This document shows, in pieces, positions 9,589 through 46,879 of a DNA stretch of 64,000 bases. Numbering within the stretch: position 1 is the first letter of the stretch; every line of letters begins with the position of its first letter. Made by a program: the position numbers and the translations under genes. This DNA is from a virus. The notes under the pieces were generated by a model. The model was not told where the DNA came from and searched no databases. It saw only the letters and a program-made list of their open reading frames with translations. The DNA lies in IMG/VR virus record IMGVR_UViG_3300035703_000021, positions 1-64,000 of that record; one strand, given 5' to 3'.

Positions 9589-10041
9589 ATGCTTACAACA
9601 CTATTCACGACTCAGATCCTTCCTGGGCTCGTATCCGCTGCCAGTGGTGCTATCTTCGGTGCCGTGATTGCCGGCTGGGATAAACTCGCAGCCAAGTACA
9701 TGCTGGCCAAGATCGGCCCTTCCATCAAAACCGTTTACAACATCATCGACCCCATCCTCGACGCCAATCTGGCCTCGTGGGAAGGATCGGATGTTGATCA
9801 GGTTATCGGTCTCGTGATCAATACCGTGGCCGATGGCAAACTCTCGGCTGAAGAAGTCAATAAGGCCGTTAAGCTTGTTTCCCAGCTCTGGCTACCTCAG
9901 ATCGCCACTCAGAAGACCAAGGACGGCGTGATCGGTACCAAGGAACTCGCCATCGCAGAAAAAATTCGGGCTGCCGTAGAGACTAAGACTCTCGACACAC
10001 CCGAATTGATTAAGACTGTTAAGGAACTGTACGTAGGCTGA
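9589..10041 (+). CDS. Membrane-anchored late protein, paralog of 39728..40294
   Basis: N-terminal hydrophobic helix; alignable to 39728..40294. Confidence 0.7.
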   Translation: MLTTLFTTQILPGLVSAASGAIFGAVIAGWDKLAAKYMLAKIGPSIKTVYNIIDPILDANLASWEGSDVDQVIGLVINTVADGKLSAEEVNKAVKLVSQLWLPQIATQKTKDGVIGTKELAIAEKIRAAVETKTLDTPELIKTVKELYVG

Positions 10042-10112: not shown

Positions 10113-10814
10113 TCATGGGCTCGGGGCTTTTTGCTGTGGAGGTTCGATCTTCTCCACTACTTTAACTTGCTCTAACTCATCGAGAGCTTGGGCGATCGCA
10201 GGAAACTGCTCGTTGAAGATCTTGCGACAGGCAATGGCAATATCCATGTGCTCCTTCTGCGTGCCGTTAGCGCCCCGGAGGTCGATGTAGTGCATCCATG
10301 AGCGGAGAGTGCCGTGCATGTAGATCCGACTCGGGGAGTTCATCGGCAGGATCTTGCGAGCGCACTCCTTCGCCACTCCGGCCTCGAGCATATCATCGTA
10401 GAGCTCCTGGGCCTCGGAGAACAGCATCCGGGTCCGCTGCTGGAAGGCGATGACCAACTCTGGATCCAAGTCGTCCACGGAGTTCTGGCGGTTTTTGGTG
10501 TCCTGGCGGCGCAGTTCGGGGAGCTGGAGCTGACCCAGATCCTTCACATCGGCGTATCGCTGCGAGAACTCCTGAAATCCACAGAATGATTTGTGGCGAA
10601 TTATTTGAGCAGCAATATCCCTAGTAGTATTAATCTCAACGCACATAGTAGCCATTTCAAATGGACTCCAGTGTTTATGCTTGATAAGGTACTTAATCAA
10701 GCGAGGAGCAGTTTCATAATTACCCTGGTTTTTGGGTGCGGAGACCCGAGCCATATCGGTGATGAGATGTTCAGCTTCGGGGGTCACATGAATGAGCTTG
10801 ACTAATTGCGTCAT
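10113..10814 (-). CDS. thyX: Flavin-dependent thymidylate synthase
   Basis: ARVS, HWSPFE, RHKSF..QEFSQRY, KECAR, RSWMHY..R. Confidence 0.95.
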   Translation of the reverse strand: MTQLVKLIHVTPEAEHLITDMARVSAPKNQGNYETAPRLIKYLIKHKHWSPFEMATMCVEINTTRDIAAQIIRHKSFCGFQEFSQRYADVKDLGQLQLPELRRQDTKNRQNSVDDLDPELVIAFQQRTRMLFSEAQELYDDMLEAGVAKECARKILPMNSPSRIYMHGTLRSWMHYIDLRGANGTQKEHMDIAIACRKIFNEQFPAIAQALDELEQVKVVEKIEPPQQKAPSP

Positions 10815-27927: not shown

Positions 27928-29805
27928 TTAAGGTCTGTATGTGGATGCATTTTTTAAATATCCGTCAGCACCACAAATCAATCCGACTCCACTGCAGGTG
28001 TAAATTCTTTGACCAGGAGAAATATTCACGGATGAACATAGATTTCCAGGTTGTTTCTTCTCACAAACACTATTTGCTTTTTGATCTTTAGTTACTTTAT
28101 CAACCTTTTGTCGTTCTGTCACACAAGCTGGACTTGTTGAGAATTGTTTTGCTGCTTGTCTACTAGAATCCGCCGCGTTCTGTACCATAGACATAGCAGC
28201 GGAATAATTTCTTGTTAATGCATTCAGCCCAGTCTTAGCATCTTCGGATTTCATAGAAGTATCAGTAGCTACCATTAAGTTTCTTGAGTCTGCATTAGGA
28301 TAAGTTGAGCGCGATGTTAACTCAGAACCCAAGTCCCCTCTTGCTTTGTTATAAAGAGAGTTATATTCCCCTCTTACATTAACCACTATTGTTTTTGTTT
28401 CCGATCCTGTTGGCTTGCTCTTTTGCTGAATTTGATAGAATTGGTCGGCGTATACGGCAGCTCTTTGGCATTTTTGGTAGAATTCTGTGGGGGTCAGTCC
28501 GTTTTGGCCAGTGGGTTTCTGGTTTGGTTGTCCTCCCCCTCCTGGATTGGAGTTTGCACCGGACGGGCTTGCGTTTCCGGAGGGATTCGAAGCCGAACTG
28601 CCAGGAGTGGCCGCACTGCCTTCAGTGGATAGGCGACCGGGCCTGGCCACGTCAACAAAGCCATCATTTATCGTCCACTCCGGCACCTGCTCCAGAGTAA
28701 AGGAGAGCTCGGCATTGACCACCTCCCCCTCGTCCCACATCTTCTCCTTGATATTAACGTTCTTGATCACACACGGGCCGAACACCCTCTTCCCCCACAC
28801 GAACTCGAGAACGTGGGGGCCATGCTGGCCTTCACCGTCGCGGGCCATAAAGAGCTCGATGAGTCCCTGCTCCAGGGCCTCGACCTTGCGCCCGAACACG
28901 AACCCATTGAGCAGTACGGAGTTGAATTTGAGCTGGGCGTTCTTGTTGTGGCTCCAGTGTAGAGGTTGACCAGAGTTGCCCTTATCGCTCACTCCCCACG
29001 TCTCGGCGTTCTTAAACTCCGGACCCACCTCCAGTTCTAACTCCGAGGGGTTGAAGAGGAACTGCCACATCATCTCGCCGGTGGCCGGGGCCGTAGTCCC
29101 TGCGCCCATAGCCCCTCCGGTGTAGGGTGGTTTGCCCTGCGAGATGCCAATAAGCGACTTTCCCACTCTTCCCAGGGCGCCCCAGAACCCGTTAGGGTTG
29201 GCGGATTTCACCGTGCCTAGCGCTGCGCCCTTAGCCGCCGATGCACCACGGGGCTGAGGTGTGGCGACATTCGACTGGGTGGTTTGTGCTGTGCTACTAG
29301 TCGGGGTTTGCGACGCCAGGGCCTGCTGCCTGCCAAAGTCGATCTGGGCTTCTAGAGTCTGTATATTGGCCTCGGCGACCTCGATGGGATTATCCACATC
29401 GCCATACGGATTGAAACCGTAGGTGCCTTTGACAGGATCGTAGTTGTTCGCCACCGAGTCGCGGTTCTCTATCGCCGCTTCGAGTTGTTCTCTCAGCTCC
29501 TGCTGTGAGTCGGCCGACGCGTTAGTCGCGGGTGCGGTATTGGCGGCTTGCTGAGCGGTGCCCGCTCTCTTCCAGATTCTTATGTACGCTGTATTGCCAC
29601 GCATCGATCCATCACCCAAAGCTTTCTGAAATCCGATAGTTTCTAGAGCTGAGTATACCTCAAGATTACCACCAAAGAAACTACGAGGTGCCCCAAAACC
29701 CGAGGAGGCGGGCGCTTGACCCTGACTCTCCTGAGGACTTGGGGCTTGGGAGTTAGCCTGGGCCCGGGCTGTATTCTGTTGGATGAGTTCGTCTCTTCCG
29801 GGCAT
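27928..29805 (-). CDS. Tail tube initiator / CIS-tube-domain protein
   Basis: FLFNPSEL..FVWG..CVIKNV..AELSFTLEQ. Confidence 0.75.
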   Translation of the reverse strand: MPGRDELIQQNTARAQANSQAPSPQESQGQAPASSGFGAPRSFFGGNLEVYSALETIGFQKALGDGSMRGNTAYIRIWKRAGTAQQAANTAPATNASADSQQELREQLEAAIENRDSVANNYDPVKGTYGFNPYGDVDNPIEVAEANIQTLEAQIDFGRQQALASQTPTSSTAQTTQSNVATPQPRGASAAKGAALGTVKSANPNGFWGALGRVGKSLIGISQGKPPYTGGAMGAGTTAPATGEMMWQFLFNPSELELEVGPEFKNAETWGVSDKGNSGQPLHWSHNKNAQLKFNSVLLNGFVFGRKVEALEQGLIELFMARDGEGQHGPHVLEFVWGKRVFGPCVIKNVNIKEKMWDEGEVVNAELSFTLEQVPEWTINDGFVDVARPGRLSTEGSAATPGSSASNPSGNASPSGANSNPGGGGQPNQKPTGQNGLTPTEFYQKCQRAAVYADQFYQIQQKSKPTGSETKTIVVNVRGEYNSLYNKARGDLGSELTSRSTYPNADSRNLMVATDTSMKSEDAKTGLNALTRNYSAAMSMVQNAADSSRQAAKQFSTSPACVTERQKVDKVTKDQKANSVCEKKQPGNLCSSVNISPGQRIYTCSGVGLICGADGYLKNASTYRP

Positions 29806-33430: not shown

Positions 33431-34674
33431 TCCTTGATGGAGGTTCGGAGGTCCTTGAGGCCGCGGAGCAGGGCTCTCAGCTCCTTAACGCACTTCTTAT
33501 CGTCGGCCTCGCGACACTGCCGCAGGTTCTCCGTCTCCTCTTTTATCTTGGAGTGCGTCTCAGAATCCTTGAGAGCGAGGTCTTTGCACTTCTCAAAAAT
33601 CTCAATGTCGGAGACTTTCTCCATGCAAAGAGTCCTATTCCGGCCGGTGAGCTCGGGGTGGGAGTTCTCGCGTCTGGACTTAGAGGCTCTGGAGAAGAAA
33701 GAGGTCTTGTCCTCGTGCCATGTTGCAGGGATTTCCGGGAGGAAAAGTCCCTTTCGTAAGAGAAAGGTTCTTGCGGACAGCATGTGATCTGACCGGTTGG
33801 ATGGAGTTGTATTGTTAAGTACTTTGAGTAGGCGTTTGGTATCTTCTTCTGTAAAACGCCATGTAGTATCTTCGTCATAAAGATCAAAAAATCGTAGCGG
33901 AGTGCCAGGGTAGAGATTATCGCCGAGGTCACCGTACTCGACTTTGAAGTCGTAGCAGCCTCTGGCGGTGGTGATATGCATTCCCTCCTTGCGGAGATAG
34001 TAATCGCAGACCTCGCGTTCCGAGCGAAGCCTAGGCAACCAGGGGCCGGTGTTGGCCCAGATGATCTGATGCTCGTCGGAGACGAGGCCCTGCCAGTCAC
34101 CATCCAAAGTCCCGAGAAGGATCTGGCGCTTGGCGAGTTTGGAGTTCTTGCGAGCTTTGCGCTTGAGCCTGCACACGTGCCCGGCGATGTCATCCGCCTC
34201 AAAGAACTCCTTGGCGAAGTAGTGGAAGGTGGAGCCGGGGGAGTTGATGTACTTGTACCCCTCGTCCTGGATGAGGTCGAAGAACTCGGTCTTCTCACCC
34301 CGCCCGCCTTTGTACTCAGCCATGTCGAGCTTGTGGGCCTCGATATGCCGCCAGTACCCCTTGCCACTCACGGAGGCTTCGGAGAAGTCCGCTGGAAGTT
34401 TGCCCTTAAGGTCGTCTGCCACAAGCCCCACGAAGGGCATGGGGCTAAGCATATCCGGCCCTCGGTTGAGGCGATAGGCCCACATGGCCTTGATTATCTT
34501 GCGAAGCTCCTCCTCAGAGCCATTCGCCACGTCCACAGCCGCTTCCGCGTAATTATTGATAAAGTGCGCACAGACCTTGAAATCGATGACGTAGACCGGA
34601 CAATAAGGATCGAGGACGGGCTCAAATACATCTTCGAGTAGGGTGGCGGTGTGGTCGTATTCGGGTAGGGGCAT
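33400..34674 (-). CDS. 5'-3' exonuclease / RNase H (FEN-like)
   Basis: VID, YWRH..YKGGR, EADD, DGDW, GD.GDN. Confidence 0.85.
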   Translation of the reverse strand: MPLPEYDHTATLLEDVFEPVLDPYCPVYVIDFKVCAHFINNYAEAAVDVANGSEEELRKIIKAMWAYRLNRGPDMLSPMPFVGLVADDLKGKLPADFSEASVSGKGYWRHIEAHKLDMAEYKGGRGEKTEFFDLIQDEGYKYINSPGSTFHYFAKEFFEADDIAGHVCRLKRKARKNSKLAKRQILLGTLDGDWQGLVSDEHQIIWANTGPWLPRLRSEREVCDYYLRKEGMHITTARGCYDFKVEYGDLGDNLYPGTPLRFFDLYDEDTTWRFTEEDTKRLLKVLNNTTPSNRSDHMLSARTFLLRKGLFLPEIPATWHEDKTSFFSRASKSRRENSHPELTGRNRTLCMEKVSDIEIFEKCKDLALKDSETHSKIKEETENLRQCREADDKKCVKELRALLRGLKDLRTSIKEQLSQLVTGS

Positions 34675-35519
34675 CAGTTCGCTACTTCCATCTTCGTTGC
34701 CGGGTGGGAGACGTAGTCGATGAGCTCGAAGTCGGTCTCGGGATCGAGGTCGAAGATGGGCTTCTCGTTATTGATCCATACATCGCACTGGGCCATAGGT
34801 GAGTTGGTGATGATCGACTTGATGGCGAGTTCGTTCTGGGAGTAGATGTGGTTGTTGGCCGAGGCGAACATCACGAACCGGGGAACCAGGTTGGCGTCCT
34901 GAGCCATCTTGGTGACAAGAAGGCCGTAGCGGAACATATCCAACGGCACCCCCGTCGCCATGTCGTTACTCCGGGCATTGACCATCAGATCAAGATGAGC
35001 CCCATCGCTAGAAAAAGTGAGGTTAGGATGACAAGGAGGGCAGTGAAGAGAATCGTAAGCAGGATTAAAAGTCTGAAGCACCAGTTGGCGATTGGTCGGG
35101 TTGGTGCGGAGCTGCTCCCAGATCCACTTGAGTTGGTCGAATGGTTCGGCACGGAAGTTCTCCCACTGCATATTCTGCTCGGGGCAGACTTGAGGCCAGG
35201 CCCTCCAGCTCCGGCCATAAGCCCCGGCCAGGCGTCCTTCGGCGTCGGCGAGGAAGTCCCAGAAGTGCTTGGCGGGGCCTAGATTGGTTACCTGGTAGTC
35301 GCCATTGACATCCCACATGAACTCACGGAAGAGGTTACGGACGGGCATCTTGCGGAGGGTAAGGGCTGGGAAGCCGTTCCGCAGATCGACTTTGATGGTC
35401 TGGCCGAACATCTGCTTGTATCGCAGATTGTTCCGGCCTACAACCTCGGTGCCCTCATCGAGGATCTCTCTGGCGATTTTGATGTACTGGAGGTCGAAGG
35501 ACAGGCAGGGCTGTGGCAT
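34674..35519 (-). CDS. Thymidylate synthase homolog, predicted dCMP methyl/hydroxymethyltransferase
   Basis: GFP.LT.RK, YG..WR, PPCH, RSNDMATGVPLD (Asp at the Asn177 position), HIY. Confidence 0.85.
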   Translation of the reverse strand: MPQPCLSFDLQYIKIAREILDEGTEVVGRNNLRYKQMFGQTIKVDLRNGFPALTLRKMPVRNLFREFMWDVNGDYQVTNLGPAKHFWDFLADAEGRLAGAYGRSWRAWPQVCPEQNMQWENFRAEPFDQLKWIWEQLRTNPTNRQLVLQTFNPAYDSLHCPPCHPNLTFSSDGAHLDLMVNARSNDMATGVPLDMFRYGLLVTKMAQDANLVPRFVMFASANNHIYSQNELAIKSIITNSPMAQCDVWINNEKPIFDLDPETDFELIDYVSHPATKMEVAN

Positions 35520-35812: not shown

Positions 35813-36285
35813 TTGTTGTTAGATTTCTTGTGGGCTTCAATGATGTCCTCGGTGGATCGGGCTTTGGATAGAGCTTGGACTTGAGCCCGTGATAGTCCGC
35901 CGAGGTCTGTTTGTTTGTACCCGGGGCCTTTCGGCGTGGCTGAGGCACCAGGGACGCACGTTTTACCAGCACGTGTCGTTCCTGCCGGGCAGCGCCCCAG
36001 CGCTTTCCCCTTATAGAATACCATGGAATCGGCGTAATTGGCACCCCCGCCTTCGACATTGGAGGCAGATGAGGCTCTCTTAGCTTTAAGAATCTCCATG
36101 TAGTCTGCCTGGGAGAGTTTTGTTAACTTATCTCCAAAGAATAGATTTACATCCTCTGGTGACATCTTCTTGATGTAGAAGTAGTTTAACAGACTTTCGT
36201 GCTTTGACATCACGGACTTGGGATCTTTTACCCCAGAATCCTTCAAATACTGAAATATGGAGTTTTTCCAGTCTTTTATTCCCAT
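35809..36285 (-). CDS. Putative internal head protein
   Basis: RCPAGTTRAGKTCVP motif. Confidence 0.65.
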   Translation of the reverse strand: MGIKDWKNSIFQYLKDSGVKDPKSVMSKHESLLNYFYIKKMSPEDVNLFFGDKLTKLSQADYMEILKAKRASSASNVEGGGANYADSMVFYKGKALGRCPAGTTRAGKTCVPGASATPKGPGYKQTDLGGLSRAQVQALSKARSTEDIIEAHKKSNNK

Positions 36286-38450
36286 TAGAATTGACTCCTG
36301 AGTATGTTGATTTCGGCATCGGAAACATTCCTTCCGATGAATTGAGAAAGTTTTTCAACTCCAGCTTTAAAGATACTCTCTGCATCTTGATTAGATGCGC
36401 CGCCTATCTTAGATAGGTATCTGTTTCCTGCCACCGTTCCTGATAGCAAAGAGGCCGCTAAAGTATTTTTGATATCTGATATCGCGTTATTTATTTCATC
36501 GAAGGATTGCCCTTCTTTGAGTTTGGAGGATATTCCTCCCCAAAGCAGATTTTGCATTGGAGAAGACATGCCTTTTTCGCTTGGGGCTGGTGCGTTGGGG
36601 TGAGAAGTTCCAAAATACGATATTCCAAGAATCTTAAGAGCCTGTTTTTTAACAAATTCTTGCACTTCCGCCGAGGATGGATCCAAAGAAGTTGCATTTG
36701 CTTCTCGAAGATCATTATCAAGAACGTTTTTTGAGATCATTCCGATGTCCTTCCGCATATCTCCAGTCAAACTACCTCTTGAATTATTAAGAGCACCCTC
36801 ACTCAATTTTTTACCAGTGCCAGCTTGCGATAATGCCACCGAGGTTCCAAATTGAGACTTATACGCGGCGCTTTGAGCGTCATTGTATAAGCGTTTTTGT
36901 TCCTCTGGATTCTCGGAAAGCTGATTAAGCCTTTCCTTCTCTCCTAATGCTGATCTATATAACCACAGGAAATTATTATCGCTTAGATGGGTGTTCAACC
37001 CTCCTCGCGTAAAGACTCCATTATCAGGATGATCCCCACCACCCCTAGCTGACGGAAGTACGTGGTCCAACGTTAAAGTAAAAGGACCCATAATAGTTGG
37101 GTCTTGGGTGTATCCATCTATTCCTCCTTGAACAAGGTATTTTTTTAGCATACCTTTACCGCGGGTTGAGGTAATTTTGTCAGCGTAAACTGGTATTTTT
37201 TTGCCATCTTGGATTTCGTATCCGCCAAATATGTTTTTCCTAGGACTTCCAACCTTATCGAATCTGCCTTTAAGAGTGGGAGGAAGAAGCGGATAAATAA
37301 TGTCAACTATTTGATCCTGCTCTTCGGGGGTTAAATCTTTGAACGAATCTAGCGGAGATCCGAAGGTCTTTCTCTCGGATTCCTGCAGGTGCTCCTGCAT
37401 TACATCGGAGGATAGGTTTTCCGCCAACGCCGCTCTTTTCTTTTCCCTCTGGTTATAGGCGGAGAGTTTTTGTTCGTATTCTGCTTTAACAGCTTCTTTC
37501 TGTTCTTTGGGGAGCCCTTTCAAATTAGGTTTCTGCGGAGGATGCTCCGATAGATCTTCCTCCGTTAATCCAGCAGCTAATAGGGCTTTCTTAATGGGGC
37601 CATTTAGTACGGACTCTAGTTCACTGTAATTTCTAAACGCTCTCTGCTCCCCTTCTTCACTTGGATCTACCTGCGATACCGATCCATCTGAATTTAATTT
37701 GTATTCTAGGCTAAATTGTTTTACGTCCTGAGCGGTTTTGCCTTCTTTTACAGTATCTCCAGATATTCTTTTTCCGTCTCCGTCTACCCACAGAGACATG
37801 AATTCTAACACGCTAGTTGCACTATTTTTAAGTTTTGGATTACTGCCTAACTTTGATTCTACGTAGTTTCTAATGGTTGTTCTTTCTTTTCCTCTACCGA
37901 CCATTTGTGTGTCTATATACATAGACGGGTTACGATTACGATCTTTTAGAAAAGCTCCTCTCTGGGAGTGGGCTTGATTTAAAGTAGTAGATCCAGTTGC
38001 TTCTCCGCTGGGCTTTGGCCGCTTTTCTGATTTAGGTTCTGGTTTTGGTTTGGGTTGCTCTTCTTGCTTAGGTTGAGATTGCGTTTCTTCAGTTGCTCCT
38101 TTTCTATCGAGAGCCTTTGACATTCCCTCCTGGATCTGCGCCCCGGTTCTTTTTTGAGGAAGAGTTCTTACATTACCTTTTGGCTTAGGAGCCGTGCTAC
38201 TTTGAACGCACTGATCCCCTTGGGCATGGAATCCAGGATCGCATTTATGGACCATAGCTGCCTGCTTCCTGTTGCCATGAGCCGGCTGTTGCTTTAGTTG
38301 CCCAACAGCAAAGCTAACTGCCTCAGAAAACCCAACAACATCCCTACCCTCAAGAGCGGGCATCCTAGCCTCACCCTCAAACAGCTGTTCCGCTACCCAT
38401 TCAGTTTTATCCGCGATTCCCCAATCCTGAGGGGCATAATCCCCGAGCAT
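36285..38450 (-). CDS. Large late protein with HNH-like domain
   Basis: AT-rich; QGGIDGYT..LDHVLP..GG.DHPDN..N. Confidence 0.7.
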   Translation of the reverse strand: MLGDYAPQDWGIADKTEWVAEQLFEGEARMPALEGRDVVGFSEAVSFAVGQLKQQPAHGNRKQAAMVHKCDPGFHAQGDQCVQSSTAPKPKGNVRTLPQKRTGAQIQEGMSKALDRKGATEETQSQPKQEEQPKPKPEPKSEKRPKPSGEATGSTTLNQAHSQRGAFLKDRNRNPSMYIDTQMVGRGKERTTIRNYVESKLGSNPKLKNSATSVLEFMSLWVDGDGKRISGDTVKEGKTAQDVKQFSLEYKLNSDGSVSQVDPSEEGEQRAFRNYSELESVLNGPIKKALLAAGLTEEDLSEHPPQKPNLKGLPKEQKEAVKAEYEQKLSAYNQREKKRAALAENLSSDVMQEHLQESERKTFGSPLDSFKDLTPEEQDQIVDIIYPLLPPTLKGRFDKVGSPRKNIFGGYEIQDGKKIPVYADKITSTRGKGMLKKYLVQGGIDGYTQDPTIMGPFTLTLDHVLPSARGGGDHPDNGVFTRGGLNTHLSDNNFLWLYRSALGEKERLNQLSENPEEQKRLYNDAQSAAYKSQFGTSVALSQAGTGKKLSEGALNNSRGSLTGDMRKDIGMISKNVLDNDLREANATSLDPSSAEVQEFVKKQALKILGISYFGTSHPNAPAPSEKGMSSPMQNLLWGGISSKLKEGQSFDEINNAISDIKNTLAASLLSGTVAGNRYLSKIGGASNQDAESIFKAGVEKLSQFIGRNVSDAEINILRSQF

Positions 38451-38470
38451 AATTCAAGCGCTATTTACTT

Positions 38471-38504
38471 AGTCTTTAAACCCGTGTCTTTCAGTCTAAA
38501 GACC
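38471..38504. promoter_or_regulatory. Divergent late-type promoter pair
   Basis: GGGTTTAAAGACT on minus strand; GTCTAAAGACC on plus strand. Confidence 0.55.
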
Positions 38505-38523
38505 TCCGTAAACCAATTCTACC

Positions 38524-39723
38524 ATGTCATCATACACCCACGGCCACATCATCCCCCTGGTAGGAGGGAGCGTGGTCGGCACGACCCTGGCCCTGGAGAA
38601 GGATCCGGAGTGGATCGCGTCCTGGAGCGACTCATTCGGCGCCAATGATCAGTACTGCCTGAAGTACTTCGACAAGACCCCCTTCCACAATCTCGATGAG
38701 GGGAACTACCCCACAAAGTACGTCGATATTGTTACGTCCCTGCCGCCCTGCGCCGGCCTCTCGATGGCCAATACCACTTCCGGCGAGAAGGTCAACAACC
38801 CACGTGGTTGCTCGGCGCCCAGCAACATGCACATGTACCACGCAGCTGAGTTCGCCATGTCCAAGATCAAGCCTAAGGCCATGATGGTGGAGAATGCGCC
38901 GGCCCTCTACTCGAAGATGGGAGAGGAGTTCGCGGAGCGGATCAACTCACTGGCCGCGGAGCACGACTACTCCATGAGCCTGGTGAAGACCACCTCGATC
39001 AATCACGGGGTGCCCCAGGAGCGTACTCGCTCGTTCTTCTTCCTGTGGCAGGGGGACAAAGTCCCGGTGCTCTCTCCTGTGAAGCGTGACTTCGAGCCCT
39101 TCCACAAGTTCCTGAAAGCTGGTGGATTCGCTAAATCCGAGCCGGTCAACTCCAAGGGAACACCTAGCGCCGATCCGCTGTGGCAATTTATCGAGGAGAA
39201 GTACGCCGGCTACACCAAGCAGGACATTCTCTCCAAGGTGGCCTCGAAGCGCATGACGTCAGTCTGGAACGTTATCTACGAGTCGGGTTGGTTGGAGGAG
39301 GCCGCGAGAGTGGTCAAGGATGAGAAGGCCAATCGCTGGCTCAACTACACACTTGAGAAGAAGCGCGCCGGCAAGAACATCATGGACGGTAGTATGAAAC
39401 TGGCTTGGTATAGAACGCAGAGTCTGATGTGGAAGTCACTTCCGTATCTTATGCATCCCTACGAGGATCGTTGGCTAACAGTGGCCGAGGGCCTCGCGCT
39501 GATGGGGTTCCCGAAGGAGTACGCCGAGAAGGTCTCTATTCCCACCAAGCACAGCAATGTTATTGCGCAGAACGTGCCCGCGTGCACAGCCCGCGACTGG
39601 ATCCTGGAGGTGGAGGAGGCGCTCAAGGGCAATCGCGAGTGGGTGGAAAGGCCTAATGGCGCGATCCTGAGACAGAACAATACCACCTCCACTAAGCCCA
39701 TGGAGCCGATCTGGGCGCTCTGA
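38524..39723 (+). CDS. Atypical DNA cytosine-C5 methyltransferase-like protein
   Basis: PPCAGLS (IV), ENAP (VI), Q.R.R (VIII), RWLT..E (IX), AQNVP (X); motif I is IPLVGG. Confidence 0.85.
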   Translation: MSSYTHGHIIPLVGGSVVGTTLALEKDPEWIASWSDSFGANDQYCLKYFDKTPFHNLDEGNYPTKYVDIVTSLPPCAGLSMANTTSGEKVNNPRGCSAPSNMHMYHAAEFAMSKIKPKAMMVENAPALYSKMGEEFAERINSLAAEHDYSMSLVKTTSINHGVPQERTRSFFFLWQGDKVPVLSPVKRDFEPFHKFLKAGGFAKSEPVNSKGTPSADPLWQFIEEKYAGYTKQDILSKVASKRMTSVWNVIYESGWLEEAARVVKDEKANRWLNYTLEKKRAGKNIMDGSMKLAWYRTQSLMWKSLPYLMHPYEDRWLTVAEGLALMGFPKEYAEKVSIPTKHSNVIAQNVPACTARDWILEVEEALKGNREWVERPNGAILRQNNTTSTKPMEPIWAL

Positions 39724-39727
39724 GCGC

Positions 39728-40294
39728 TCAGTACACCAACTTATTCTTGATCTGCATCATCCCACCGAGAAGCGCCTGAGCTTCGCTCCCGTCCGGCTCG
39801 TGGAAGATGATCTCCGCTGTACTGGCCACGAACTCCTCTGGGGTCTGTGGCCTTTCCTCGTATGTTTTCTCGTAGAGCTCGATGGCCTGGTCCACTGTGG
39901 CTTCCACTCGTGCCTCGATGACCTCGTCGGTCATAGTGAAGGTTTTGTGAAGCGCCTCCGACTGTACCCACTTGCGCTGAACGAAGTCCACAAGAGCGAG
40001 AAGCTCCTTGCGGGTAAGAGTCTCGTCCTCCACGGCCTTCAGCAGCATGGAGATGATGAGCCGGGTCTGGGACTCGGAGTAGTTCCTGTGTGCAGTATTC
40101 CTCAGCCAGAAGATGTCTAACTCGTCGAAGAGGATCTTAAGGTTCTTAGCGCCGATCTTCTTTATCGCCTTTCTGTTCACGAAGTCGAGGATGAGGTCGA
40201 GCGCCGGTTCGAGCAGGCCCCACAGCACAGCGGCCTGGATGATGATTCCCCTCTCCGAGGGTCTCTTCTTCCCAAACGAAAAGTAAAAATCCAT
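39728..40294 (-). CDS. Membrane-anchored protein, paralog of 9589..10041
   Basis: Alignable core region. Confidence 0.7.
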   Translation of the reverse strand: MDFYFSFGKKRPSERGIIIQAAVLWGLLEPALDLILDFVNRKAIKKIGAKNLKILFDELDIFWLRNTAHRNYSESQTRLIISMLLKAVEDETLTRKELLALVDFVQRKWVQSEALHKTFTMTDEVIEARVEATVDQAIELYEKTYEERPQTPEEFVASTAEIIFHEPDGSEAQALLGGMMQIKNKLVY

Positions 40295-40602: not shown

Positions 40603-41100
40603 TTAACCGAATGTGTACTGAAGCCACTCGGGAGAGCCTGAGTCAATAAGATTGAGCAGGAATCTGTTAGTGGGAACAAAAGGCTTTCTAGCGAGCTTCA
40701 TTCCGGTCTGCTCGAGAAGGGTGTCTCCCTTCTTCGTGTTGCACGTTGAGCAGGCTACCACCATATTCTCCCAGGTATCCTGACCTCCTCGGCTTCTGGG
40801 GATCACATGGTCGATGGTCAGGCGCCTTGTCGATCCGCAGTACTGGCACTTGTGCCCGTCTCGCTTGTATATAAGAGTCCGGGATGGTTTGACGGAATTG
40901 ATCTTGGTAAAAGGAATCCTTATGTACTCCACGAGCCGGATGACTTTTGCCGACACCACCGCCGCCTTCTCCTTGAGAAGCAGGATGATTGCTCTCTTCC
41001 AACTCGTGATATGAAGGGGCTCGTAGGACGCGTTGAGGACTAATACTTGTGTATTAGGCCTGATCGCTTTTACGTTTTCCGGTACCATCGCAGACTCCAC
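40603..41100 (-). CDS. HNH endonuclease (McrA-like)
   Basis: VLVLNASYEP, RD..CQYCG, TIDHVIPRSRGG, CSTCN.KKG. Confidence 0.9.
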   Translation of the reverse strand: MESAMVPENVKAIRPNTQVLVLNASYEPLHITSWKRAIILLLKEKAAVVSAKVIRLVEYIRIPFTKINSVKPSRTLIYKRDGHKCQYCGSTRRLTIDHVIPRSRGGQDTWENMVVACSTCNTKKGDTLLEQTGMKLARKPFVPTNRFLLNLIDSGSPEWLQYTFG

Positions 41101-41240: not shown

Positions 41241-41738
41241 TTAGAACGATGCTGATTCGCAGTTGCCCTGGAGCTCCTCTGCTGGGTTCGCGGTGACGGG
41301 AGCATCACCGTTCACATTGTGATCCGGCCGGACCTGATTGTAGGCTTGTTTCTCCGCGGCGACGCGAGCGAACTCCTCGCCCGTCACCCCACCATAGGCG
41401 AGGACGGCACGATGAAATAGCAGTACGTCATACATCTCAGCGATGAATTCCTTGCGAAGTTCCGCGTTATCCATGAAACTACGCTCGCCGTTCTTCCAGC
41501 TCCGACGAGGGACGTAGACGCGGGCTTCGATCATCTCCTCTCCCATGTGACCGAAGTGCTCGATCATTTTCTGGTAGCGGAAGGAGAGTCCGTCGTCGTG
41601 GCGGGGAAGGCCAAGCTCGACCATCTTGTCGATGGCGACTAGATCATCGGGACCCATTTCGCCGACCTTGGACGCGTACTTCTGCTGTGCACCGAAGCCA
41701 TCATTGATGAATTGCACGTAATCGAAGGAAGCAGTCAT
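41241..41738 (-). CDS. All-alpha dCTP/dUTP pyrophosphatase (T4 gp56-like)
   Basis: EEMIE..WK..EMYD..F..G..EE..K..N..R. Confidence 0.7.
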   Translation of the reverse strand: MTASFDYVQFINDGFGAQQKYASKVGEMGPDDLVAIDKMVELGLPRHDDGLSFRYQKMIEHFGHMGEEMIEARVYVPRRSWKNGERSFMDNAELRKEFIAEMYDVLLFHRAVLAYGGVTGEEFARVAAEKQAYNQVRPDHNVNGDAPVTANPAEELQGNCESASF

Positions 41739-46324: not shown

Positions 46325-46879
46325 TCACATGTGCTGCTGGCTGGCCGTGGACTTGACTACGATCTCCGTCTCCGGATACGTGTAGTGCATCTGGTCGGAG
46401 ACCGACTCCGGGAGTGTAGCGTTGAGGACCTTGTAGGCCATCTCCAGAGCCTCGGAGCGGGTGCGCTTTCTTGGGCTTCTGTACTCCTCGGACGTGCTTT
46501 TCACCTTGGGGATCACTGAGTAGAAGTACTCCTCGTCGGGGTGAGTGACTAGGAAGTAAGCGCGTCTGTGCTGAACGCCCTGCTCCACGACAATCTCACC
46601 CGGCTCAACGTGGAGCTGGCCGACATCGTAGCCGGGCTTGCCCTTGGGATTCATGTCCTTATCGTGAGGGCCTTCGTACGAAGGCTTCTCCCCACCGTCG
46701 ACCTTGGCCGCGCCGAAGGCACCCTCGGGATCGACGTACTGAGAGTGGTAGTCGTCCTCACCGGACTGCGGGCCGGGTTTCACCAGCTCGAGGTTCTTCT
46801 CTGTTTTTCCTGTGTCGGAGCCAGGCTCGGCGTAGGAGGCGATCTCCCAGCCCTCCGGAACGACTAACTCATGATCCAT
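46325..46879 (-). CDS. Late protein with N-terminal VPEGW
   Basis: MDHELVVPEGWEI; late motif at 46901-46912. Confidence 0.7.
   Translation of the reverse strand: MDHELVVPEGWEIASYAEPGSDTGKTEKNLELVKPGPQSGEDDYHSQYVDPEGAFGAAKVDGGEKPSYEGPHDKDMNPKGKPGYDVGQLHVEPGEIVVEQGVQHRRAYFLVTHPDEEYFYSVIPKVKSTSEEYRSPRKRTRSEALEMAYKVLNATLPESVSDQMHYTYPETEIVVKSTASQQHM

Follow-up and report, generated by a model that had tools for sequence, protein, structure and literature searches.

The DNA analysed here is a stretch of 64,000 nucleotides (positions 1 to 64,000, hereafter the window) of the IMG/VR virus record IMGVR_UViG_3300035703_000021, and it constitutes the opening 64 kb of a viral contig of 138,862 bp with an estimated completeness of about 86%. 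The window contains a gene, which we will call the methylase-like gene, encoding a 399-aa protein with the fold of the C5-cytosine methyltransferases (C5-MTases), whose catalytic motifs are preserved and whose site for the cofactor S-adenosylmethionine (SAM) has been rebuilt (Table 1). The nearest cultured relatives of the contig are the TIM5-like cyanophages (Aurunvirus), and the protein is 71% identical to its counterparts in S-TIM5, S-TIM54, S-TIM61, and S-TIM66, which are annotated either as DNA methylase or as hypothetical protein. The gene order of the locus is also that of S-TIM54, i.e., primase, flap endonuclease, 'ThyA', a large hypothetical protein, the methylase on the opposite strand, HNH, NrdA, and NrdB. 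The G+C content of the window is about 54%, and near-identical DNA was found in sequencing runs labelled as freshwater and subsurface metagenomes. Since the marine S-TIM5 isolates have a G+C content of about 41%, according to PMC10087341, the contig belongs to a distinct, non-marine, high-GC branch of the TIM5-like phages.

Table 1. Features of the window discussed in the text (TS, thymidylate synthase; dCMP, deoxycytidine monophosphate).
Feature	Position	Strand	Basis or remark
C5-cytosine methyltransferase-fold gene, 399 aa, rebuilt cofactor site	38524..39723	+	open reading frame, PF00145, AF2, Foldseek
Motif I equivalent IIPLVGG (residues 9-15; canonical LFxGxGG)	38548..38568	+	translation, profile alignment
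End of beta2, IASW (residues 31-34), Ser33 at the place of the canonical ribose-binding Glu/Asp, aromatic retained	38614..38625	+	model secondary structure, column counts
Family-specific Asn41-Asp42	38644..38649	+	N in 64/69, D/E in 65/69
Motif IV LPPCAGLS (residues 73-80), catalytic Cys76, Ala for the canonical Gln after Cys	38740..38763	+	
Motif VI VENAP (residues 122-126), Glu123	38887..38901	+	
Motif VIII HGVPQERTR (residues 161-169), with Gln165, Arg167, Arg169, and His161	39004..39030	+	
HPYEDRWLTVAEGLALMGFP	residues 311-330	+	translation
Motif X equivalent IAQNVP (residues 347-352), Gly to Gln, Asn350 kept	39562..39579	+	HMMER, column counts
dCMP-type TS homologue, RSNDMATGVPLD, with Asp194 opposite E. 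coli Asn177, Asp169 kept	34674..35519	-	3 kb from the methylase-like gene
ThyX homologue, 64% identical to S-TIM54 ThyX	10113..10814	-	
Small homing-type HNH gene	40603-41100		near the methylase-like gene
GTCTAAAGAC, differing from GTTTAAAG[A/T] by one mismatch, 30 nt upstream of the ATG of the methylase-like gene	38494..38503	+	
Perfect motif GTTTAAAGAC, at -31 of the divergent 721-aa gene	38472..38481	-	

The assignment of the protein to the C5-MTase fold is firm. It matches PF00145 with an E-value of 1e-18 (68.3 bits, the cut-off being 22), although this match begins only at residue 51 and thus leaves the N-terminal cofactor motifs outside, and it reaches 47.8 bits with TIGR00675, under the cut-off of 100.65 of that model. 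An AF2 model built on 69 sequences (pLDDT 96.2, pTM 0.93) was matched by Foldseek with a probability of 1.00 to MET1, ZMET2, DIM2, M.HhaI, M.HaeIII, and the phage enzyme CmoX (8YF3). When PDB sequences were searched with phmmer and with a profile of the family, motifs IV to VIII and IX to X aligned to M.HhaI, M.HaeIII, DNMT1, and CmoX; the first 40 residues or so fell outside these alignments, both in the four that were printed (entries of M.HaeIII and M.HhaI) and, judging by the listed ranges, in almost all the others. The protein shares with the canonical C5-MTases (M.HhaI, M.HaeIII, Dcm, DNMT1/MET1) the fold, the order of the motifs, the Cys of PC, the Glu of EN, the QxRxR signature, and motif IX.

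The preliminary description of this gene, made from the letters of the window, held that catalytic motifs IV, VI, and VIII are intact and that the motifs responsible for SAM binding are altered, and the conservation of the family, studied in an alignment of 69 sequences that reaches down to 25% identity, bears this out at each position. Cys76, Glu123, Gln165, Arg167, and Arg169 are each found in 69/69 sequences. Motif I is altered as described, with IIPLIGG standing opposite LFxGxGG in a profile-profile alignment with four canonical phage C5-MTases, so that Ile or Val replaces the Phe and Leu replaces the first Gly, and the altered version is fixed (Pro11 and Leu12 in 68/69 sequences each, Gly14 and Gly15 in 69/69). 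The acidic residue of motif II is indeed absent: in the AF2 model, strand beta2 comprises residues 31-33 and a helix starts at residue 35, which places Ser33 and Trp34 at the site of the canonical Glu/Asp-aromatic pair, and position 33 is Ser in 61/69 sequences (with one Asp and no Glu), whereas position 34 is aromatic in 63/69. The register of motif II is uncertain by one residue in the alignment, but no adjacent column is a conserved acid. The GN of motif X does read QN, since HMMER sets iaQNVPvtTA opposite MIGNAVPVNLA of M.HaeIII, with the Gly changed to Gln (Gln349, 69/69) and the Asn retained (Asn350, 68/69). Two further residues, Asn41 (64/69) and Asp/Glu42 (65/69), are newly conserved in the family.

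The same picture emerges from the motif counts in 150 listed cluster representatives, where PLxGG occurs in 139/150 and QN[VC]P in 133/150, most of the others being truncated sequences. The residue that follows the catalytic Cys is Ala in 109 cases, Ser in 28, Gly in 4, and Gln in none (the motif could be matched in 141/150), and a His precedes GxPQxRxR in all of the 139 representatives matched among the 150, a position occupied in canonical enzymes by Phe or Tyr. In comparison with the canonical C5-MTases, therefore, LFxGxGG has become hhPLhGG, the acid at the end of beta2 is missing, GN has become QN, PCQ has become PCA/S/G, and [F/Y]GxPQ has become HGxPQ. As these changes are conserved across the family, they are a family trait and reflect neither chance nor decay.

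In M.HhaI, Phe18, Glu40/Trp41, and Asp60 hold the adenosine, the glycines of motif I and motif X face the methionine arm, and Gln82 and Asn304 line the space beside C5. Read against these roles, the changes in the family affect the C5 side of the active site as well as the cofactor site. The loss of the cofactor signatures could also be explained if the protein were a catalytically silent base-flipping or DNA-binding protein, e.g., a reader or regulator of modified DNA; nevertheless, the five invariant residues listed above form a pattern that points to selection for covalent catalysis, and we give this explanation very little credit.

The family is large and virus-only. A word-indexed search yielded 253 relatives, and an exhaustive search of 50%-identity representatives yielded 687 at E<=1e-3 and 191 at E<=1e-30. 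IMG/VR contains at least 589 relatives, while species genomes provided 16 loci, all of them on contigs of metagenome-assembled genomes (MAGs), and the Atlas clusters of the family are 100% viral. The near absence of the family from cellular genomes led us to discard a restriction-modification methylase, and the neighbours of the family, far from being restriction enzymes, are replication, nucleotide, and glycosylation genes. In a search of 50,697 phage records, the matches close to full length (no less than 93% of the query and 30% identity) were the five TIM5-like records and Pseudoalteromonas phage XG4; in Bacillus phage G the match was weaker and partial, covering about 75-79% of the query at 24-28% identity, a further search added eight more distant methylases, and no Escherichia phage was among the phage-record matches. 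Cultured carriers are S-TIM5, S-TIM54, S-TIM61, S-TIM66, and Pseudoalteromonas phage XG4. Our literature searches found no published description of this family.

Some members of the family are longer (557-1462 aa; P0220, P0172, P0159, P0170, and P0169). P0220 ends in a C-terminal CXXC zinc finger (PF02008, E 6.6e-7), and the extra parts of the other four gave no match to any Pfam family. Some contigs, such as L031 (5951-8321) and L140, have two adjacent genes of the family in tandem.

The genomic company of the family provides the second line of evidence. We have fetched 80 viral loci from the close alignment (set 1), 80 viral loci of distant members (set 2), and the 16 loci from species genomes. 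When the 2,845 neighbouring open reading frames (ORFs) were clustered, a protein of the thymidylate synthase (TS) family was the commonest neighbour shared by all four sets, being present within the flanks of 76/176 loci. A search of whole records with PF00303 detected the gene in 37/41 of the set 1 contigs that measure 15 kb or more and in 24/47 of those searched in set 2, the majority of which are fragments less than 30% complete; all the negatives of set 2 were at most 30% complete. Among the records at least 45% complete, together with our own contig, S-TIM54, and XG4, a TS-family gene was found in 22/22, and in all 22 there was a copy of the type that acts on deoxycytidine monophosphate (dCMP), recognised by RSxD...G...D; four jumbo records carried a canonical ThyA as well. 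One 26%-complete record of set 2 outside these 22 (G067) showed only a canonical ThyA. The TS homologues fall into six or more sequence types, and the sizes of the records extend from about 26 kb to 389 kb, so the link is not one lineage counted repeatedly. As a control, a TS-family gene was found in 1/50 viral contigs with canonical PPCQ-type C5-methylases, the single case being a canonical ThyA in a 673-kb record; small temperate phages or proviruses make up most of this control set, and genome size and lifestyle confound this proportion, although the contrast is nevertheless large. The methylase-like family is, then, tightly coupled in the genomes to TS homologues of the dCMP type.

The contig under study shows this coupling. 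The counterpart in the isolates of the 'ThyA' homologue, which lies 3 kb upstream of the methylase-like gene, is named ThyA in published maps (PMC10087341). In the contig, its alignment to thymidylate synthases sets GVPLDMFRY opposite GVPFNIASY, which puts an Asp at the position of Asn177. The change of Asn177 to Asp is the established switch from dUMP to dCMP (deoxyuridine and deoxycytidine monophosphate, respectively), as described in PMC8670742, and on this basis the homologue is of the dCMP type. Its RSND motif retains Asp169, and position 143 is Cys rather than Leu; according to PMC13326640, the change of Asp169 to Asn marks the 5-hydroxy-dCMP synthases, and position 143 correlates with a methyl or a hydroxymethyl product. 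The homologue is probably, judging from these residues, a dCMP C5-hydroxymethylase. The contig also encodes a ThyX that is likely to be the true thymidylate synthase, which would leave the ThyA homologue free for dCMP, and a dCMP deaminase. Beside NrdA there is a 165-aa ORF (41241-41738, minus strand) that gave no Pfam match in this contig; its S-TIM54 counterpart, as well as the apparent ones in four related contigs, show weak PRA-PH/MazG-like matches (E 1e-4 to 7e-3, none of them reaching the cut-off). This ORF is a candidate for the dCTP (deoxycytidine triphosphate) pyrophosphatase of a replacement pathway.

The neighbourhoods of the family contain, in addition, genes for the decoration of modified bases. 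A 419-aa protein (L073:5888-7147 and relatives) is encoded directly upstream of the methylase-like gene in 49/173 loci and within three genes of it in 72, in T4-like and jumbo lineages, and the two genes are often translationally coupled. This protein matched no Pfam or PHROG family and, by sequence, it did not match the alpha-glycosyltransferase of S-TIM54; but the top six Foldseek matches of its AF2 model (pLDDT 81) are all to T4 beta-glucosyltransferase (E 1.6e-9 to 2e-7, probability 1.00). Other neighbours are a DNA alpha-glucosyltransferase (PF11440, E 1.6e-74; 17 loci), a NAD-dependent sugar epimerase/dehydratase (38 loci), and a protein with the helical domain of 5-hydroxymethyldeoxyuridine (5-hmdU) DNA kinases (PF18723, E 2.6e-11; e.g., L171:5882-7030; 18 loci). 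The presence of this kinase-like protein in phages with a dCMP-type TS hints at a phosphorylation of 5-hydroxymethylcytosine (5hmC) in DNA. A heptose-1-phosphate adenylyltransferase-like cytidylyltransferase, an isomerase-like protein, and dCMP deaminase are further recurrent neighbours. What stays constant, then, is the pair formed by the methylase-like gene and the TS homologue; the enzymes that decorate the base vary.

This arrangement recalls the hydroxymethylcytosine (hmC) system of T4 (the dCMP hydroxymethylase gp42 and the alpha- and beta-glucosyltransferases), with which the family shares a dCMP-type TS, neighbours resembling both glucosyltransferases in relatives, and the alpha-glucosyltransferase of S-TIM54 (phrog_2888, E 1e-142, with a match to PF11440). 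The simplest reading is that the TIM5-like phages may possess a T4-like, pre-replicative 5hmC pathway; no published statement of modified cytosine or of a 5hmC pathway in these phages was found in our literature searches. The T-even phages differ from the phages studied here in that no member of the methylase-like family was found for them among the phage-record matches. A second likeness is with the phages that use a methyltransferase and a TET enzyme (MT/TET, 5mYOX), in which methylase-fold genes lie within clusters of DNA glycosyltransferases that build sugar-modified 5hmC; there (bioRxiv 10.1101/2023.12.21.572611) the route is post-replicative, MT producing 5-methylcytosine (5mC) and TET converting it into 5hmC, whereas the partner of our family is a pre-replicative dCMP-type TS homologue. 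Tet_JBP (PF12851) was detected in 0/22 records, which is a weak negative for the MT/TET pathway given that 14 control genomes gave no match either.

The third system to be compared is CmoX. According to PMC12783734, CmoX (PDB 8YF3) is an enzyme of Synechococcus phage S-B43 that carboxymethylates C5 of cytosine in DNA. Its hallmarks are an Arg in place of Asn304 of HhaI and the partner CmoA; it has a SPPC motif and retains the canonical adenosine contacts Phe25, Glu47/Phe48, and Asp69. The preliminary description had proposed that the enzyme may use a SAM analogue such as carboxy-SAM, and a CmoX-like C5-carboxymethyltransferase would be a natural candidate, given that 8YF3 is among the structural and sequence neighbours of the family and that CmoX, a phage C5-MTase fold with an altered cofactor preference, performs the first step of a hypermodification. 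However, where CmoX changes only Asn304 to Arg, the family keeps the Asn (Asn350) and alters the adenosine and methionine signatures, and SPPC reads LPPC here. Moreover, the search for CmoA-like genes that had been suggested gave none above the cut-off (TIGR00740) in the contig, which is about 86% complete, or in the 21 other family-bearing records, the only trace in the 22 being a match of 14.9 bits with four stops. The retained Asn, the lost adenosine contacts, and the absence of CmoA from these records led us to reject the carboxy-SAM proposal, which is already largely refuted and to which we attach almost no probability.

Taken together, the family-wide loss of the SAM signatures, the conservation of the catalytic residues, and the tight coupling to dCMP-type TS and DNA glycosylation genes incline us, by a modest degree, to the view that the methylase-like enzyme has a dedicated post-replicative role in a 5hmC-type cytosine replacement pathway and uses its cofactor site in a non-canonical manner, rather than being a methylase of the restriction-modification or orphan kind. 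The pathway would begin before replication, with the ThyA homologue producing 5-hydroxymethyl-dCMP and ThyX producing deoxythymidine monophosphate (dTMP), and the 5-hydroxymethyl-dCMP would then be incorporated into the phage DNA. The methylase-like enzyme would flip a pyrimidine out of this DNA, Cys76 would add to C6, and the chemistry at C5 would take place in a pocket that no longer binds SAM canonically. The invariance of the Cys, Glu, and Arg residues suggests that, once a cytosine-type base has been flipped out, the enzyme still attaches its cysteine to C6 and acts at C5. The preliminary description had also considered that the enzyme might act on pre-modified cytosine or fill in residual unmodified cytosine, and these two ideas have gained strong contextual support from the dCMP-type 'ThyA' of the contig, the 22/22 records, and the glycosylation clusters.

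Two versions of this role can be envisaged. In the one we favour, albeit tentatively and as a possibility rather than a probability, the enzyme would act independently of SAM on 5hmC or on its phosphorylated or glycosylated form: covalent activation would expel the hydroxyl, phosphate, or sugar, and another group would join the exocyclic methylene. The C5 substituent would fit into the space freed by the change of Gln to Ala after the catalytic Cys, and the former methionine site would be occupied by Leu12 and Gln349. In the second version, which strikes us as rather unlikely, the enzyme would fill in the cytosines that escape replacement, transferring to them a one-carbon unit whose donor would not be canonically bound SAM, and the variable glycosyltransferases and kinases would finish the work, an order of events that fits the pattern of a constant core and a variable decoration. 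Cofactor-free C5-methyltransferases have reportedly been shown by the Klimasauskas laboratory to add or remove formaldehyde at C5 and to couple thiols to 5hmC. These side reactions are in vitro activities of SAM-dependent enzymes, and they offer a chemical precedent for Cys-dependent C5 chemistry without SAM. We know of no natural enzyme dedicated to cofactor-free C5 reactions, and none was found in our literature searches. The family may conceivably be the first natural class to use the covalent mechanism of the C5-methyltransferases without SAM on 5hmC DNA, either for the exchange of a hydroxyl, phosphate, or sugar or for the direct hydroxymethylation of leftover cytosines, a proposal that we regard as less likely than not.

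Several points weigh against a non-canonical role in 5hmC metabolism, besides the confounded control already described. The protein may still use SAM: some of the adenine-type contacts may survive (position 34 is aromatic in 63/69 sequences and Asp58 is present in 40/69), and the conserved Asn41-Asp/Glu42 could substitute for the lost acid of motif II. The TS homologue is the only partner present in all the sampled lineages, and the lack of another universal partner argues against a single dedicated nucleophile. That the TS homologue yields a hydroxymethyl rather than a methyl product is something we infer from its residues alone. The T-even phages contain hmC and do not have the family, and since no Escherichia phage was among the matches, the enzyme is an accessory and not a requirement. 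In the contig itself, profile searches with PF11440, PF00535, and PF00534, and tblastn searches with the alpha-glycosyltransferase, glycosyltransferase, gyrase, and SpeD of S-TIM54, gave no match; with alpha-glucosyltransferase, GT1/GT2, and TET not found in the approximately 86% of the genome that is available, glycosylation is unproven for this phage. Finally, the genomic association would look the same if the enzyme were an ordinary methylase marking leftover cytosines.

This last point leads to the most serious competing explanation, i.e., that the protein is an ordinary SAM-dependent, site-specific C5 methyltransferase of a divergent subfamily, which would place 5mC on phage DNA, e.g., on escaped cytosines, as a protection against restriction, and which would hold SAM through substitute residues, e.g., the ribose through Ser33 and Asp42 and the adenine through the aromatic residue at position 34. 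It may quite possibly be correct, although we would place it somewhat below an even chance. Its prior is high, as SAM is, to our knowledge, the cofactor of nearly all the characterised members of the fold, and the matches to PF00145 and TIGR00675 (the latter below its cut-off), the intact catalytic motifs, the Foldseek probability of 1.00 to solved SAM-dependent enzymes, and the conservation of the aromatic 34 and the acidic 42 all agree with it, as does the annotation of the relatives as site-specific DNA-cytosine methylases and of the isolates' genes as DNA methylase. What it does not readily accommodate is that FxGxG, the acid at the end of beta2, and GN are all altered and fixed in a family that reaches 25% identity, and that the C5-side residues have changed as well (PCQ to PCA/S/G, and the aromatic before GxPQ to His). 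It also leaves unexplained the association with the dCMP-type TS (22/22, against 1/50 with canonical methylases) and the operon linkage to DNA glycosyltransferase-like genes.

Regarding the expression of the gene, the preliminary description had mentioned a late-type promoter motif. A one-mismatch variant of an enriched motif does lie 30 nt before the ATG, but the label 'late' is not borne out by our data. The core GTTTAAA, which emerged only from a count of k-mers in upstream regions, is present in 16/143 upstream regions of the contig compared with 0.95 expected, and GTTTAAAG[A/T] is found 26-72 nt before 17 other ORFs, several of which encode more than 600 aa; examples lie upstream of 27928-29805, 46325-46879, and 9589-10041. 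We consider GTTTAAAG[A/T] a candidate phage-specific promoter. A scan for sigma-70-type promoters around the methylase-like gene gave no sites, and the 9-mer AGTCTAAAG, with one mismatch allowed, occurs 14 times in the window against 13.2 expected and is not enriched. RNA-library contigs cover 35920-38733, a segment that takes in the 721-aa gene and runs through the intergenic region into the initial 210 nt or so of the methylase-like gene, as well as 39912-40290; the rest of the methylase-like gene lies outside them, and such contigs can show neither transcription nor its absence.

The divergent 721-aa gene (36285-38450, minus strand), located between the TS homologue and the methylase-like gene, has a weak match to phrog_3561, a low-complexity stretch rich in Lys, Pro, and Glu, and an HNH-like segment. 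One contig from a DNA run joins position 36051 to position 38306, skipping 2,254 nt that correspond to most of this gene, the shorter side of the junction being 30 letters long; it may represent a variant of the population that lacks the 721-aa gene.

Few DNA enzymes are understood as well as the C5-cytosine methyltransferases, and their natural members, CmoX apart, are taken to make 5mC with SAM. Here, a large virus-only branch has kept the covalent apparatus and has rewritten every cofactor signature, and it travels with pre-replicative cytosine-replacement genes in many unrelated phage lineages; the combination of kept catalysis, rewritten cofactor site, and replacement-gene company suggests a step of DNA hypermodification not described so far. 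If its chemistry is new, the enzyme would give the cofactor-free reactions of epigenomic labelling a counterpart in nature and could serve as a tool enzyme for 5hmC, and if the existence of a SAM-free class is true, it would add a new post-replicative step to the hypermodification of cytosine in phages. For the TIM5-like cyanophages, which are widespread in the oceans and, judging from this contig, in fresh water, these genes suggest that their DNA carries modified cytosine, which would bear on their resistance to host defences and on the behaviour of their DNA in sequencing.

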